Virus genome (UHGV): UHGV-0126275
Source of the DNA: a virus
Direction: 5' to 3' (one strand)
DNA: 43,021 nucleotides
Part shown: piece by piece, positions 5,717 to 35,783 of the stretch
How positions within the stretch are numbered: the first letter of the stretch is position 1
How the letters are laid out: every line of letters starts with the position of its first letter
Position numbers and translations under genes: made by a program
The notes under the pieces: model-generated
Told to the model about the DNA's origin: nothing
Seen by the model: the letters and a program-made list of their open reading frames with translations, nothing else
The model's database searches: none

Positions 5717-5793
5717 TTACCGTTGAGGTAATAATTATGCTTATTTGGTTTGGTGTCAATAGATATGAGTTAAAAAAATTACCCGTAAGGTAA
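5717..5793. promoter_or_regulatory. Left operator pair: two copies of the palindrome TTACC-N5-GGTAA (5717..5731 and 5779..5793)
   Basis: TTACCgttgaGGTAA and TTACCcgtaaGGTAA bracket the candidate leftward promoter, one over the -10 and one just upstream of the -35. Confidence 0.6.
5731..5759 (-). promoter_or_regulatory. Candidate leftward early promoter (-35 TTGACA, 17-nt spacer, -10 AATTAT on the minus strand)
   Basis: Read from the reverse complement; flanked by palindromes at 5717..5731 and 5779..5793. Confidence 0.5.
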
Positions 5794-5850: not shown

Positions 5851-6435
5851 TTATTGTTTGCTTTTTTCGTTCTGGTTGATGACAAATTCAATGTAACTTT
5901 CGATCTTTGCTTTCTCGGTTTCGGGTAACAATGCGTAGCGTGAGCGGTCATAGTTGATAGTCGCAGGGTCGTGCGGGTGAATCAGTAGTTCATATCCGTG
6001 ACGCCCGAATGCGGATGCAACATTCTCCAGAGTGGAAATGGAAACGCTGACCTCATTGTTTAACAGGCGGCTGATTGTCACCTGGGCGACGCCGGATGCG
6101 CGGTGAAGTTTTCCCTGTGTTGAAAGGTCGCGGCTTTCGCTCATCCAGCGTTCCAGGTTGTGAGCCGCCAGCTGACCTATATCGCTCGGGCCGACAGGCT
6201 GAAAACCCTCCTGAGAAAGCGAACGATCAATATCAAGCCAGTTACGGGGTTTATTGGCGGCAGCTTCAATTTTTCGTGCAACCTGGTCGCCGATAACCTT
6301 CTTGCCAAGAGCCCAGCGGTTTACCAGATTTGCCTGAGTTCCAAGTTTTTCTGCCATCCGCGTCTGAACACCATTGAATTCACGGTCGATCAAGTCGTTG
6401 AGATTTTGCCTGCGGACGTCCTGGATACTTTTCAT
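5851..6435 (-). CDS. Prophage repressor, tandem HTH (XRE-type) domains, no LexA-like peptidase S24 domain
   Basis: 194 aa; HTH-like segments 'VQTRMAEKLGTQANLVNRW' and 'LHRASGVAQVTISRLLNNE'; no Ser/Lys autocleavage domain; divergent from the Cro-like gene. Confidence 0.75.
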   Translation of the reverse strand: MKSIQDVRRQNLNDLIDREFNGVQTRMAEKLGTQANLVNRWALGKKVIGDQVARKIEAAANKPRNWLDIDRSLSQEGFQPVGPSDIGQLAAHNLERWMSESRDLSTQGKLHRASGVAQVTISRLLNNEVSVSISTLENVASAFGRHGYELLIHPHDPATINYDRSRYALLPETEKAKIESYIEFVINQNEKSKQ

Positions 6436-6490: not shown

Positions 6491-6553
6491 TTACCCAACA
6501 GGTAAATGCACCCCGTAGGTAACTATCCTTGATTTTTGTTACCTTATGGGTGA
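6491..6553. promoter_or_regulatory. Right operator pair in the repressor/cro divergent region (6491..6505 exact; 6539..6553 with one mismatch)
   Basis: TTACCcaacaGGTAA and TTACCttatgGGTGA; the second overlaps a candidate rightward promoter (TTGTTA-N17-TATTAT). Confidence 0.6.
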
Positions 6554-8814: not shown

Positions 8815-8891
8815 TTACCTGGCGGGTAATAAAATATTCTAAAATCTATTGATTTCGTGTCTTATGTGGTTTTTAATTACCTTAGAGGTAA
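8815..8891. promoter_or_regulatory. Promoter (TTGATT-N17-TTTAAT) bracketed by two TTACC-N5-GGTAA palindromes (8815..8829, 8877..8891)
   Basis: Same geometry as the left operator pair: distal site upstream of the -35, proximal site over the -10/start. Confidence 0.55.
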
Positions 8892-32059: not shown

Positions 32060-32144
32060 TATTCGGAATTGTATTGTTCGGAAGAATAATAAAATAACTA
32101 GTTAATTTGTGGATTGGTGCTGTTTTTCCATGATAGGGGTAATT

Positions 32145-32525
32145 ATGAGAAAAGTATTTTTGATTTTTGGATTTATGCTTCTCGTTGGATGCCAGTCAGC
32201 TGCACAGTTTGAAAGAAATATGCTTACGTGGCGCGGGCAGAGTATAGACGCAATGGTTCAGCAGTGGGGGTATCCTCAGGGAGAGCTTACATCTCCAGAT
32301 GGAAACAGAGTGTATGTTTACTCAAGCTCTGGTAGTTATAACGTACCACAAACCACAACGTATAATACTACGTCTAATCTAATTGGTAATACTATATATT
32401 CAAACACATACGCAACAACTGATGGCGGTTATACACTCCATTTCAGTTGCTCTGTTTACGTTGAGTTTGGTGCTGATAAGATTATTAAAAATGTTACATG
32501 GCGCGGTAATAATTGCGTTGCGTGA
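32145..32525 (+). CDS. Lipoprotein (accessory/moron gene)
   Basis: Start at 'MRKVFLIFGFMLLVGCQSA' (lipobox LVGC); stop codon embedded in the 12-bp palindrome; terminator follows. Confidence 0.6.
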   Translation: MRKVFLIFGFMLLVGCQSAAQFERNMLTWRGQSIDAMVQQWGYPQGELTSPDGNRVYVYSSSGSYNVPQTTTYNTTSNLIGNTIYSNTYATTDGGYTLHFSCSVYVEFGADKIIKNVTWRGNNCVA

Positions 32526-32534
32526 CATGTCACA

Positions 32535-32558
32535 GGCCGCTTTCGCGGCCTTGTTTTT
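32535..32558 (+). terminator. Rho-independent terminator after the lipoprotein gene
   Basis: GGCCGC-TTTC-GCGGCC followed by TTGTTTTT. Confidence 0.7.
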
Positions 32559-32597
32559 AACGAATGCCACCGCCGCCCGGGCGGGAATCCGCAGACA

Positions 32598-32621
32598 CAA
32601 AAAAGCCCGCGGCGCGGGCTT
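32598..32621 (-). terminator. Rho-independent terminator after the 211-aa gene
   Basis: On the minus strand AGCCCGC-GCC-GCGGGCT followed by TTTTTT. Confidence 0.65.
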
Positions 32622-32627
32622 AAAGAA

Positions 32628-33263
32628 CTATTTTATTGGCAGCTTATGCTTTGAAATTATGGCCAATCTGTTTTGGAAGTTTTCCGCATCACCCCACAAC
32701 CAGGTTTCACCTTTCTCAAGTTCTTCCTCGTTATTCATCTCTATAAGTTCGCATGTCATCATGTCGTAACCATAGAGATGGAGGCCAAGTTCCAGTGCGT
32801 CATACATGCGAGCCTGCCAGAACGACATGCCTTCATGAGTCTGGTTGCGATCAGACACGATGATATCGTACCGTTCCAAGAGGTAGTTCATGAAGATGAT
32901 GCCAGCGAAATCATGAAGCACAGCACGATGCTTAGGCTTCTGGGTTCTCCATACCAATATCTGCGTGACAGGACGGCAGTTAAGATAGCTGTCAGGCTGG
33001 ATAATGACACGATTGTAATACACTACCTCTTCGGTGAGGTCATTTATCAATGACAGTTCAAAGTGCGCCTGTGGAATCTCGCCTTTCTTACGATCGTCTA
33101 CACGGACAACGCGGTATCCAGGAGCCAGAGAAACGCCTTTGACATCAGATGTGACATCGTTGCCGTTCACTAACTCTGAATACAGGGCGCGGTTGTCTGG
33201 AGTTTCGTTCAGATGAGCGAAAACCTCAGTTACCTTTGCCGGATTCAGCAGTTGTTGTGGCAT
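32628..33263 (-). CDS. Hypothetical protein (211 aa), stand-alone accessory gene
   Basis: ORF with GAGGTG RBS, own candidate promoter and terminator; no recognisable motif. Confidence 0.6.
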   Translation of the reverse strand: MPQQLLNPAKVTEVFAHLNETPDNRALYSELVNGNDVTSDVKGVSLAPGYRVVRVDDRKKGEIPQAHFELSLINDLTEEVVYYNRVIIQPDSYLNCRPVTQILVWRTQKPKHRAVLHDFAGIIFMNYLLERYDIIVSDRNQTHEGMSFWQARMYDALELGLHLYGYDMMTCELIEMNNEEELEKGETWLWGDAENFQNRLAIISKHKLPIK

Positions 33264-33303
33264 ACATCACCTCATAATATATAGATGCTTCTTTAAGCGG
33301 GAT

Positions 33304-33318
33304 TTACCATTAGGGTAA
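33304..33318. promoter_or_regulatory. TTACC-N5-GGTAA palindrome in the leader of the 211-aa gene
   Basis: TTACCattagGGTAA. Confidence 0.5.
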
Positions 33319-33462
33319 ATGAACTATCCGAATGTTAAACGCCTTCGTACTCGTCAAATTTTCTCATGTGGGCTCCTCCTGTATCGGTGCCTAATCGCTA
33401 TGGATCACCCGTGAGGTAATAGTACGCTATTCACCCACAGTCTGCAATCTGTACAGAATTAT

Positions 33463-33480
33463 TTAAAGGCACATCCCTGT
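33463..33480 (-). terminator. Terminator after the Bro-N gene
   Basis: On the minus strand GGCACA-GGGA-TGTGCC followed by TTTAAATAATT. Confidence 0.5.
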
Positions 33481-33491
33481 GCCGCCGCTCG

Positions 33492-34184
33492 TCAGAAGAA
33501 CCCTGCTTTGTCGTTGATATACTCCGCGTGGGTCTGGATATCACGCAGGCATTTGCTCACACCGACGATGTAGCAGAACATGGTGGTCAGCTCCGCCGCC
33601 GCGCCCGATACGTCGTGCCCGTCGTCCTGTAACTGGTTCAGCAGATTCATCAGCAGTGAGTTCTCCGTCAGGCCGAGAACACCAGACGGCGAGTGAATCA
33701 GGCTGCGGTAGCCGGGCTTCAGCGGGGCGCTGTAGGTTTTGTTCTCTATCTTCATTGCCTGCATTACTGCTGACGCCGTGGCGTTGGCTACCTGGTCGGC
33801 AACCATCTTTATGCGTTCTTCCTGCGGGAGCGAGTTTTTAATGTAACTTCCGGTGCGGCGGATCTGAGGAAGAACCTCACCTGTAACCCATTCAAGAAAT
33901 CTGAATGCTCTCGTTCCCTCAGTCATTGCCTCTTTGCAACGCAGAATAAGGATGTAGAGACCTGATTCTGAAACGATGGATAGTTCTTGTATTCCACCAG
34001 GGGTCTGTATTGAATACAGCCCCTTTTTGTTCCAGCCTTTTTTATCAAGTTTTCTCGCTTGTGTAACATCAATATTCAAAGCATTGCACACATCTTTGGT
34101 GACAAACCAAGGTTCTCCGTCAATCATGAACATACGGATCTGGCAGGATGACTCAAAGGAAAAGATGGAAGGTTTGGTATTCAT
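33492..34184 (-). CDS. Bro-N domain protein (antirepressor-like) with C-terminal domain paralogous to the small protein at 35331..35588
   Basis: Start at 'MNTKPSIFSFESSCQIRMFMIDGEPWFVTKDVCNALNI' (Bro-N signature); AAGGTG RBS. Confidence 0.7.
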   Translation of the reverse strand: MNTKPSIFSFESSCQIRMFMIDGEPWFVTKDVCNALNIDVTQARKLDKKGWNKKGLYSIQTPGGIQELSIVSESGLYILILRCKEAMTEGTRAFRFLEWVTGEVLPQIRRTGSYIKNSLPQEERIKMVADQVANATASAVMQAMKIENKTYSAPLKPGYRSLIHSPSGVLGLTENSLLMNLLNQLQDDGHDVSGAAAELTTMFCYIVGVSKCLRDIQTHAEYINDKAGFF

Positions 34185-34451
34185 AGCGATCACCTTTGTA
34201 GTTAGGTTAATCACCACCGCTGAGACCAATCAGATGGTGGTGAACTGTGCAGAGTTGGTCTTACCGGCTACAAAGGAACCCGGCGCACCTTTCGGTGCCC
34301 CCACACAGCCCACCATAGAATAGGTGCGCTTTACACATAAAAAAACCGCTTATGCGGCATATGTGCCTCTGTAGTAATCCGGGAGACCAATCCCGGCACT
34401 GGATTTTGCCAGTGCCCGATTACTATGGCACAAGAGGAGTGCGATGTAAAT

Positions 34452-34559
34452 TTACCGCAAAGGTAATGATAAACGCGAAGAAATATTAAAATCAACCGTA
34501 TTTGGTTGATTGCGTTTAACGCTTGATCACCTGAAAGCAAGATATTACCTTTAAGGTAA
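34452..34559. promoter_or_regulatory. Two TTACC-N5-GGTAA palindromes (34452..34466, 34545..34559) in the divergent region between the Bro-N gene and the zinc-ribbon gene
   Basis: TTACCgcaaaGGTAA and TTACCtttaaGGTAA. Confidence 0.5.
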
Positions 34560-34579: not shown

Positions 34580-35308
34580 ATGGAAGTTTTCTGGATAGTT
34601 GTTGGTGTGGTTGCGGTGATTATTTACGTTATCAACCAGAACAAGACTAAGATCTCTGATCGTACGGTCGTTAATCATAACAAAACGATAAAGACCGAAG
34701 ATGGGGAGATAACGATTAATCGTACACAGGTGATAGAACACACCTCTACTCAGTTTCAAAAAACTGGAGGTAATGCGCCTAATATTTCCGCACCTCCTGC
34801 TTATGATAGTGCGGTAATCCAGACATATTATAAACAGCAGGAGTTAGCAAAAGAGAGGCAACTGATTCAGCCAAAGCCGTTTACAGCTGAGCTTCCACCT
34901 GGAGTGTCAACGCGTCCGGCATATCATGGAAGATTCCCTGGTGATGACATATCGTCTCAGTCATCTAAAAAAGCACCTCAGGCAGTATCAGAGCCAGCAA
35001 GAATACCTTCTGTATCGCCGCCAAAAGAAGAATCAGCTAACAGAGTTTCAAGTGGCCGCAAGCAGTGTTTGCGATGCAGAATAAACCTTCCATATGACAA
35101 ATTCCGGAAATCGTCAAAAAATCCAGATGGATTGACTAAGTGGTGTGCAAGGTGTCTCGATGGCCCAAAGAATACACGCCATATGAAGTGGTGCCCAATT
35201 TGTAATGTCCGCAGAAAACGGACCAGCTTTTACCCTAATAATCAAAATGCGGACGGCTTAATGGCATGGTGCAAAACGTGCTGGGACGAGCACAAAGCGA
35301 AACGATAG
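34580..35308 (+). CDS. Membrane-anchored protein with tandem C-terminal CxxC-x22-CxxC zinc ribbons
   Basis: N-terminal 'VFWIVVGVVAVIIYVI' TM helix; Pro/Ser-rich linker; 'CLRC...WCARC' and 'CPIC...WCKTC' repeats each containing 'DGL'. Confidence 0.65.
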   Translation: MEVFWIVVGVVAVIIYVINQNKTKISDRTVVNHNKTIKTEDGEITINRTQVIEHTSTQFQKTGGNAPNISAPPAYDSAVIQTYYKQQELAKERQLIQPKPFTAELPPGVSTRPAYHGRFPGDDISSQSSKKAPQAVSEPARIPSVSPPKEESANRVSSGRKQCLRCRINLPYDKFRKSSKNPDGLTKWCARCLDGPKNTRHMKWCPICNVRRKRTSFYPNNQNADGLMAWCKTCWDEHKAKR

Positions 35309-35330: not shown

Positions 35331-35588
35331 TTACCGGGTTTGTTTTCGTAATTGTTCGGCACAATAGTCGAGATGTGTTTGCAGATCCTGCATAGACATC
35401 TGTGAGCTGGTGACGTAGTTAATCAGTGCAGTCAGTTCGGCAAGTGGGCCATCGACATTAAATCCATCCTTATCGAGATCCCGGAGTAATTTCATCAAGT
35501 GCGATCCCTCCACCAGTGACCTGACGCCTCCCGGCGTGTGAATCCTTTCGGTAAATCCGTCTTCCAGTGGATAGTGATACTGCTGCAT
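35331..35588 (-). CDS. Small antirepressor-like protein (about 85 aa), LexA-box-controlled
   Basis: Start at 'MQQYHYP' (GGAGAAG RBS); homologous to the C-terminal domain of the Bro-N protein; LexA box 22 bp upstream. Confidence 0.6.
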   Translation of the reverse strand: MQQYHYPLEDGFTERIHTPGGVRSLVEGSHLMKLLRDLDKDGFNVDGPLAELTALINYVTSSQMSMQDLQTHLDYCAEQLRKQTR

Positions 35589-35609
35589 CTTATCTTCTCC
35601 ATGCAATAA

Positions 35610-35625
35610 CTGTATGTTTATACAG
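35610..35625. promoter_or_regulatory. LexA (SOS) box CTGT-N8-ACAG
   Basis: aaCTGTatgtttatACAGta; near-consensus with AT-rich spacer, just upstream of the small antirepressor-like gene. Confidence 0.7.
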
Positions 35626-35664
35626 TAACAAATAATTTGTTTGCTATCCAGCACGTTTTGCAAA

Positions 35665-35679
35665 TTACCCGAAAGGTAA
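35665..35679. promoter_or_regulatory. TTACC-N5-GGTAA palindrome upstream of the antirepressor-like gene
   Basis: aTTACCcgaaaGGTAAt. Confidence 0.5.
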
Positions 35680-35783
35680 TATCTATTGGTATTTATAGTC
35701 TTTTTATCCATATATGGTTTTTCAGGTAATAGAATAACCAGATATGCGGCGCAACGGGTGCTGCGACTATCTGGAGATTTAAC

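Follow-up and report, generated by a model that had tools for sequence, protein, structure and literature searches.

The virus genome UHGV-0126275, a stretch of 43,021 nt that was analysed as a whole and is called the window here, is a phiV10/epsilon15-like (Uetakevirus-type) prophage of Escherichia coli. Between the genes of large ejection-type proteins and that of an endosialidase tailspike, and on the strand opposite to that of the structural genes, it carries a gene for a soluble 24.6-kDa protein of 211 amino acids (32628..33263); in this region the window shares 99% identity with a prophage of E. coli IAI39. An original prediction, made from the sequence alone, had singled out this open reading frame (ORF) as a candidate defence or superinfection-exclusion gene expressed in the lysogen, and the ORF is present where that prediction placed it. 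The Shine–Dalgarno sequence of the gene, GAGGTGA (33267..33273), lies in its own 5′ untranslated region (UTR; 33264..33321), a segment that the window has in common with the homologous locus L026. The gene is followed by a strong intrinsic terminator (32603..32621; AAGCCCGCG-CCG-CGGGCTT, then TTTTTGTGTCT), recognised both by the terminator scan and in the sequence, with an 8-bp stem that includes six GC pairs and with a T-run. Directly upstream is the antirepressor gene ant (33492..34229), of the Ant type, whose product contains a Bro-N domain (Pfam, E 2e-13) and matches PHROG anti-repressor families. The interval between the two genes holds a weak hairpin after the ant stop codon (33468..33483; GGCACA-GGGA-TGTGCC, then TTTAAAT; from sequence and fold), a sigma-70-like promoter, TTGCAG-N17-TACTAT (33419..33447; TTGCAG at 33447..33442 and TACTAT at 33424..33419), and two palindromic elements, O1 and O2, between which an 83-nt insert (33322..33404) contains a 10-codon mini-ORF. 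All of these genes and signals, the palindromes aside, are assigned to the minus strand.

The operator-like palindrome predicted in the leader, ATTTACC-CTAAT-GGTAAAT (33320..33302), is indeed there, and it is not alone. When TTACC-N5-GGTAA was counted over the whole window with at most one mismatch, 15 copies were found against 0.81 expected, a number that none of 100 shuffles reached. All of them are intergenic (5717, 5779, 6491, 6539, 6876, 8815, 8877, 12998, 13016, 16159, 33304, 33405, 34452, 34545 and 35665). The first four flank the gene of the 194-amino-acid prophage repressor (5851..6435, minus strand; HTH_3 in Pfam): the copies at 6491 and 6539 lie between this gene and the divergent cro-like gene, while those at 5717 and 5779 bracket a strong leftward early promoter just downstream of it, in which TTGACA-N16-TAATTA runs directly into TTACC (5717). 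The pair at 8815 and 8877 has the same 62-bp spacing as the pair 5717/5779 and brackets a promoter, TTGATT-N17-TTTAAT; further copies are found upstream of the terminase and portal genes. With those of phiV10, phiv142-3 and vB_EcoP_ZX5 the repressor shares 99.5% identity, and overexpression of ORF21 of vB_EcoP_ZX5, which blocks the lytic cycle, has shown that this protein acts as a repressor (PMC9782041). From these data we infer that TTACC-N5-GGTAA is the operator of the phiV10-type repressor, which would presumably bind O1 and O2 as well. The 15 copies look like a dispersed operator network in the style of P1, one that would extend to the terminase and portal genes. The epsilon15 genome paper reportedly gives a similar operator motif; a search for a putative consensus string of that motif gave no match.

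O1 (33405..33419; TTACC-TCACG-GGTGA, one mismatch) directly adjoins the -10 hexamer TACTAT, with whose last base it overlaps, and extends over the predicted +1. An operator copy is placed in this way also at the leftward early promoter and at the promoter of the isrK–C4–ant unit, TTGATT-N18-TATCAT (34452..34495, minus strand), which has the operator copy 34452..34466 at its -10/+1. In that unit ant is preceded by the isrK RNA (34339..34415; 74.7 bits) and the C4 antisense RNA (34233..34320; 78.6 bits), both on the minus strand and above the Rfam gathering score, and the three together form a control module of the P1/P7 immI type in an epsilon15/phiV10-like podovirus. The c4-a1b1 target element is also present upstream of ant, with an Rfam score just under threshold (module 34233..34428, minus strand). 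O2 (33304..33318; TTACC-CTAAT-GGTAA) is a perfect palindrome located 101 bp downstream of O1, in the 5′ UTR, 55 nt before the ATG and with no adjacent -10. Homologues of the gene have this motif too, between -53 and -85, and O2 is the operator copy that travels with the cassette of the 211-amino-acid gene. With O1 on the -10/+1 of the promoter and O2 in the leader, the lysogen most likely keeps the gene repressed, and repressor-gated early expression is favoured over expression in the lysogen. It would probably be switched on as the phage wakes up, not in the quiet lysogen. The original prediction had the gene expressed by the lysogen, which is the opposite of what an operator copy on its proposed promoter leads one to expect.

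The promoter and operator are shared by many prophages that lack the 211-amino-acid gene. The 85 nt after the ant stop codon, which comprise the hairpin, the promoter and O1, are present in about 330 of 5426 complete E. coli genomes; 52 of these (52 of 332 records) run on through the 83-nt piece with the mini-ORF, and only 13 have the 211-amino-acid gene. The variability was charted further in 105 IMG/VR contigs (L063, L126–L183 and others) that carry the block corresponding to 33405..33491 of the window, cargo classes being assigned from the sequence directly 3′ of TACTAT-TACC-N5-GGTAA. At least nine classes were distinguished; in each of them the cargo is attached right behind the same promoter and operator. 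The mini-ORF with a DUF4760 gene accounts for 38 of the 105 contigs and a 59-amino-acid protein with a YafO-like toxin for 19; then come pairs of 55 and 146 (12 contigs) and of 108 and 170 amino acids (nine contigs), a 210-amino-acid PHROG 1349 protein from a paralogous subfamily with 30% identity (eight contigs), the mini-ORF with the 211-amino-acid gene (seven contigs), pairs of 72 and 125 (seven contigs) and of 62 and 110 amino acids (two contigs), and a single 69-amino-acid protein (three contigs). Among the cargoes are two pairs with a YafO-like toxin, along with several pairs formed by small ORFs. Since the cargo junctions fall on the operator, its copies may well serve as the short homologies through which cargoes are exchanged. 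The description of the gene as a stand-alone unit is borne out: it is an accessory cassette on the strand opposite to the structural genes, found in 13 of about 330 genomes, in a variable slot, and it has relatives that stand alone in chromosomes.

The hexamers and the 17-nt spacing of the predicted promoter are present as announced; they agree with the consensus at 7 of 12 positions, and the promoter scan, for which the site was under threshold, did not call it. The site is kept ahead of different cargoes in the approximately 330 E. coli genomes and the 105 contigs, and homologues in other genera have a similar TTGCAx-N17-TAnnAT with an operator upstream, a design that recurs ahead of homologues in further IMG/VR contigs. 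The promoter is thus backed by conservation and by its overlap with an operator, not by the quality of its hexamers. In some DUF4760-carrying prophages, namely L011 (strain B19429), L012 and L013, 7 nt are deleted from the promoter spacer (homologous to 33425..33441). Terminators had been proposed on both sides of the gene, which holds for the strong one downstream (32621..32603), whereas upstream there is only the 6-bp hairpin (33483..33468), not called by the terminator scan and possibly a weak terminator. Nor is the leader unusually structured, as had been supposed: from the predicted transcription start (33412..33264) its z-score against shuffles is +1.05, and that of a 241-nt version is -0.78. 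Neither value is significant, and a structured, riboswitch-like leader was rejected. Rfam searches revealed no RNA family in the leader; a Trp_leader match at 32597..32704 (E 0.34, under threshold) is the terminator, matched by chance.

The 211-amino-acid protein has no match in Pfam or NCBIfam, and neither it nor the alternative cargo proteins of the slot match PADLOC-DB v2. The original statement that it belongs to no recognisable family is correct in that respect, but the protein matches PHROG 1349, a family of unknown function, over its full length (E 2.9e-78), and its predicted structure is that of a GNAT. Close homologues (36–95% identity) come from Enterobacterales only and are all annotated as hypothetical. 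By exhaustive profile search the family comprises 915 clusters at 50% identity, nearly all of single-domain proteins of about 200 amino acids. Among 63 diverse members, all 63 matched PHROG 1349 and none matched a Pfam, NCBIfam or PADLOC family. A second large homology search with a diverse alignment yielded no further annotated relatives, and the literature on phrog_1349, WP_001136300, DUF4760 or anti-phage GNATs contained nothing relevant that we could find. The protein begins with Met-Pro, as do all members of the close family and 78% of the diverse superfamily members (alignment A4); removal of the methionine would expose an N-terminal proline.

The prophages in which the family is represented are of podovirus, myovirus and siphovirus type; other members are solitary genes in chromosomes. 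In a Dickeya podovirus prophage the gene occupies the same position as in the window and has TTGCAT-N17-TAGGAT-TACC-CATAA-GGTAAT upstream; in a Yersinia myovirus prophage it is an isolated insert in the tail gene cluster, with GTTACC-TTTAA-GGTAAT upstream; in siphovirus LLS it lies at the genome end, after the lysis genes. Solitary copies were found in Erwinia amylovora (after ihfA), Xenorhabdus bovienii (after fliE) and Photorhabdus laumondii. Their neighbours (ihfA/btuE, fliE and non-ribosomal peptide synthetase (NRPS) genes, and LuxR/RtxA, respectively) do not constitute defence islands, and no neighbour is conserved. Such a distribution is that of a function which a single gene provides by itself, and the solitary copies suggest that the cell derives some benefit from it.

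Profile and structure-based searches, which the original prediction had proposed as a check, gave PHROG 1349 in the first case and the GNAT fold in the second, profile searches of PDB sequences returning chance matches only. The AlphaFold2 model (mean predicted local distance difference test score 85.7, predicted template modelling score 0.81) is a globular alpha/beta protein with the central mixed sheet that is the hallmark of GNATs. Compared with PDB and BFVD by Foldseek, it matched GNATs and viral proteins labelled 'Acyl-CoA N-acyltransferase' or 'NAT_SF' with probability 1.0. Several uncharacterized phage proteins among the viral models matched it over the full length, with template modelling scores of up to 0.72/0.81, and the nearest solved structures are the C-terminal domain of Mycobacterium tuberculosis ICL2/Rv1916, NatD (Naa40) and Hat1. 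Residues conserved throughout the family are found on the central strands (Y82, and Q101 and W105 on strand 99–106) and on the loop and helix that follow strand 134–136 (D138, Q141, T142, G145, F148, W149 and A156). On the model they would cluster at the cofactor/substrate cleft of a GNAT. The maximum 19-residue Kyte–Doolittle hydropathy is 1.07, which indicates that the protein has no transmembrane segment or signal peptide. The fold is thus GNAT-like in the model, catalytic competence being only predicted; the most likely activity would be acyl transfer to, or acyl-CoA binding for, a protein or small-molecule target.

The reading that we prefer, and to which we give a somewhat less than even chance (about 45%), is that the 211-amino-acid protein is an early-expressed, acyl-CoA-dependent modifier involved in phage–host or phage–phage conflict. 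Its gene is a mobile single-gene accessory cassette inserted in a hypervariable slot after an antirepressor gene controlled by isrK and C4. Transcription would proceed from TTGCAG-N17-TACTAT, the -10/+1 of which is covered by O1; the phiV10-type repressor would shut the gene off in the stable lysogen, and infection, induction or inactivation of the repressor would turn it on together with ant. The soluble, divergent GNAT-fold protein would then transfer an acyl group, or bind acyl-CoA, for its protein or small-molecule target, and its role would be one of counter-defence or exclusion during early development. Several points weigh against this interpretation. Binding of the repressor to the palindrome is itself inferred. 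The 7-nt deletion found in some prophages would upset the 17-nt spacing if TGTACA did not serve as an alternative -35, which leaves the exact promoter uncertain, and read-through from ant into the gene is possible. No link to GNAT families was detected at the sequence level in Pfam, NCBIfam or PDB profile searches. The canonical Q/R-x-x-G-x-G/A loop is not recognizable either, the loop after strand 99–106 reading WRTQKPKHR, so that acyl-CoA binding, or catalysis, may be lacking. The intact solitary copies in Erwinia, Xenorhabdus and Photorhabdus fit a constitutive, host-beneficial function better than an early or counter-defence one. Finally, conflict with the host or with other phages as the biological role is our best guess. 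It is tempting to speculate further that PHROG 1349 as a whole is a large unrecognized GNAT-fold family whose members, upon derepression, acylate a protein of host defence or of a competitor phage, so that enzymatic counter-defence or exclusion would be widespread, from operator-gated early cargo slots whose contents are reshuffled by recombination at the operator; we regard this wider proposal as unlikely.

The same cassette could instead be a moron that is transcribed constitutively and protects the lysogen by defence or by superinfection exclusion, much as originally predicted. Its architecture, with a promoter-like site of its own and a strong terminator, would suit such a role, as would its residence in a hypervariable slot where other cargoes include toxin–antitoxin-like pairs, its isolated insertion in the tail cluster of the Yersinia prophage and the maintenance of intact solitary copies in several genera, which is what one would expect of a host-beneficial gene. 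Yet the only plausible promoter has an operator on its -10/+1 and a second one follows in the leader, as at early lytic promoters; PADLOC does not recognize the protein, which is soluble and lacks the membrane segment of exclusion proteins of the SieA/Imm type; and the surroundings of the solitary copies are not defence islands. We consider constitutive protection of the lysogen improbable on these grounds, and the candidacy of the gene for defence or superinfection exclusion is weakened.

Somewhat less probable again is that the protein modifies a small molecule, such as an antibiotic, a toxin or a metabolite, to the benefit of the host cell and with no direct part in conflict. Many of its structural neighbours are enzymes of that kind, namely AAC(2')-Ia, ArsN, GNA1, EctA and MccE, and pathogens of plants and insects have kept solitary copies, which in X. 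bovienii lie beside an NRPS cluster and in Photorhabdus beside toxin (RtxA) and type VI secretion system genes. The structures that match best, however, are those of protein acetyltransferases and of a regulatory domain that binds acyl-CoA, Pfam and NCBIfam searches revealed no resemblance in sequence to a resistance family, and neither the operator of a phage repressor nor a slot with toxin-like cargo would be expected for a resistance gene. The regulatory domain just mentioned raises a further alternative, to which we assign a comparably low likelihood: the GNAT fold may be a non-catalytic binding or regulatory module that, for example, senses acyl-CoA or sequesters a host protein. Indeed, the top structural matches are to the acetyl-CoA-binding regulatory domain at the C-terminus of M. 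tuberculosis ICL2/Rv1916, the pyrophosphate-binding motif is not recognizable and no GNAT hidden Markov model (HMM) matches the sequence; on the other hand, the strong conservation throughout the family of polar residues (Q101, D138, Q141 and T142) at the presumed active-site cleft would rather be expected of an enzyme. A virion or assembly component related to the internal or ejection proteins of podoviruses, suggested by the adjoining ejection-protein genes and by a weak Foldseek match (rank 32) to the T7-group 'host specificity protein A', is effectively refuted by the distribution of the gene, which is missing from phiV10 and from most closely related prophages, lies on the strand opposite to the structural operon, has solitary chromosomal relatives and encodes a GNAT fold.

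With the GNAT superfamily the protein shares the fold but no detectable sequence similarity and no canonical Q/R-x-x-G-x-G/A loop; about 120 of its 211 residues superpose, and it has in addition an N-terminal two-helix extension and a C-terminal helix–strand element. Phage acetyltransferases of the AcrVA5 type reportedly inactivate a host defence protein. Like them, the 211-amino-acid protein is a phage-borne GNAT fold encoded by a variable, probably early-expressed accessory gene; AcrVA5 is much smaller, however, and solitary bacterial copies are atypical of anti-defence genes. The GNAT toxins TacT, AtaT and ItaT differ in that no antitoxin gene adjoins our gene, either in the window or at the solitary loci, and their HMMs do not match; between promoter and terminator the only partner ORF is the 10-codon mini-ORF, which is not in L026. 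As a self-contained unit of promoter, gene and terminator, whose presence is polymorphic among near-identical phages and which occurs in several phage types, the gene resembles the morons of lambda and HK97, but classical morons are expressed from the repressed prophage, whereas here the promoter carries the prophage operator. Its product also lacks the transmembrane segments of the membrane exclusion proteins SieA, Imm and Sp. As for the control region, isrK and C4 RNAs precede the antirepressor as in P1/P7 immI (c4-icd-ant) and in Salmonella Gifsy-1 isrK–anrP, and a single palindrome is scattered over many promoters, that of ant included, as is the case for the P1 C1 repressor. The host phage is here an epsilon15/phiV10-like podovirus and not P1, its operator is not related in sequence to the P1 operator and, unlike immI, the module is followed by a variable cargo slot with an operator-controlled promoter.

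What is new, then, is a branch of a known fold that is divergent and has not been catalogued, in a genomic niche of a familiar type. To our knowledge, an enzymatic mode of action is still rare among phage conflict proteins, and it is the one that the GNAT fold suggests for PHROG 1349, a large family without a Pfam entry. If the gene is indeed under the control of the repressor, the slot would be an early accessory locus gated by an operator, in which at least nine cargoes can replace one another, and as such a compact place in which to seek new counter-defence, exclusion and toxin functions in a common group of E. coli prophages. It would also follow that an insulated gene at the tail boundary need not be expressed in the lysogen, which corrects a rule of thumb that is probably wrong.

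The leader of the 211-amino-acid gene is a recombination mosaic. The 10-codon mini-ORF had been predicted together with its GGAGGAG ribosome-binding site, and both are present on the minus strand (MRKFDEYEGV, 33335..33367 with the stop; ATG at 33367..33365, TAA at 33337..33335, GGAGGAG at 33379..33373), but they do not belong to this gene. L026, whose protein is 96% identical, lacks the 83-nt piece: TTGCAG-N17-TAATAT-TACC-TTACG-GGTAAAT is followed there by the ATG some 40 nt later, without a mini-ORF, and a regulatory role of the mini-ORF intrinsic to the 211-amino-acid gene was rejected on that account. Alignments show the same 83 nt ahead of DUF4760 genes, where a GC-rich hairpin, GGGGCC-ATTA-GGCCCC, and a T-run follow the mini-ORF. 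DUF4760 loci that were found independently of the mini-ORF keep the peptide MR/KKFDEYEGV. In diverged loci the mini-ORF shows one conservative and five synonymous third-position changes, in the midst of diverging flanks, and the terminator stem changes in a compensatory manner, from GGGGCC/GGCCCC to GGGGCT/AGCCCC. The conserved peptide, the synonymous changes and the compensated stem indicate that the mini-ORF belongs to the terminator–attenuator of the DUF4760 cassette, of which it is a genuine leader peptide. The DUF4760 leaders are more structured than shuffles (z about -2.4), and we regard them as candidate translation-coupled attenuators. In the cassettes L093:1352-1500 and L117:1018-1166 the mini-ORF has a strong ribosome-binding site, an intrinsic terminator lies about 20 nt after the mini-ORF and before the gene of the DUF4760 membrane protein, and in the predicted fold the start of the mini-ORF pairs with the U-tract of the terminator. 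In the window it is O2, not a terminator, that comes after the mini-ORF, so this feature of an attenuator is missing; the mini-ORF here is a recombination leftover deprived of its terminator, probably still translated but with no obvious role for the 211-amino-acid gene. The mini-ORF pattern was absent from the species-representative genomes searched.

Some neighbouring genes deserve mention. A 138-amino-acid ORF (32109..32525, plus strand), directly after an ejection-protein gene and convergent with the 211-amino-acid gene, belongs to PHROG 3716 (unknown function) and has a terminator of its own (32534..32551). From a likely internal start it would begin MRKVFLIFGFMLLVGC, a lipoprotein signal with a lipobox, and this predicted lipoprotein is on its face a better candidate for lysogenic conversion or exclusion than the 211-amino-acid protein. 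Beyond the ant module, a 242-amino-acid protein of PHROG 6762 (34580..35308, plus strand) carries two cysteine-rich repeats in its C-terminal part, similar to the zinc-binding N-terminus of endonuclease VII, Stc1 and Lar-like proteins. Its gene, with the operator copy at 34545 just upstream, is missing in IAI39 and several related prophages and is therefore another variable insert. The long ORF at 35331..35711 (minus strand) contains the operator copy 35665..35679 within its 5′ part. In homologous regions RefSeq annotates an 85-amino-acid product only, which resembles the C-terminal domain of the antirepressor alone (PHROG 450) and may be a truncated Ant-like modulator. In IAI39 (L001 1671..3603), the homologue of the gene for an 824-amino-acid ejection-type protein is broken by IS3-family elements, and that prophage copy is probably defective, with its accessory region intact.

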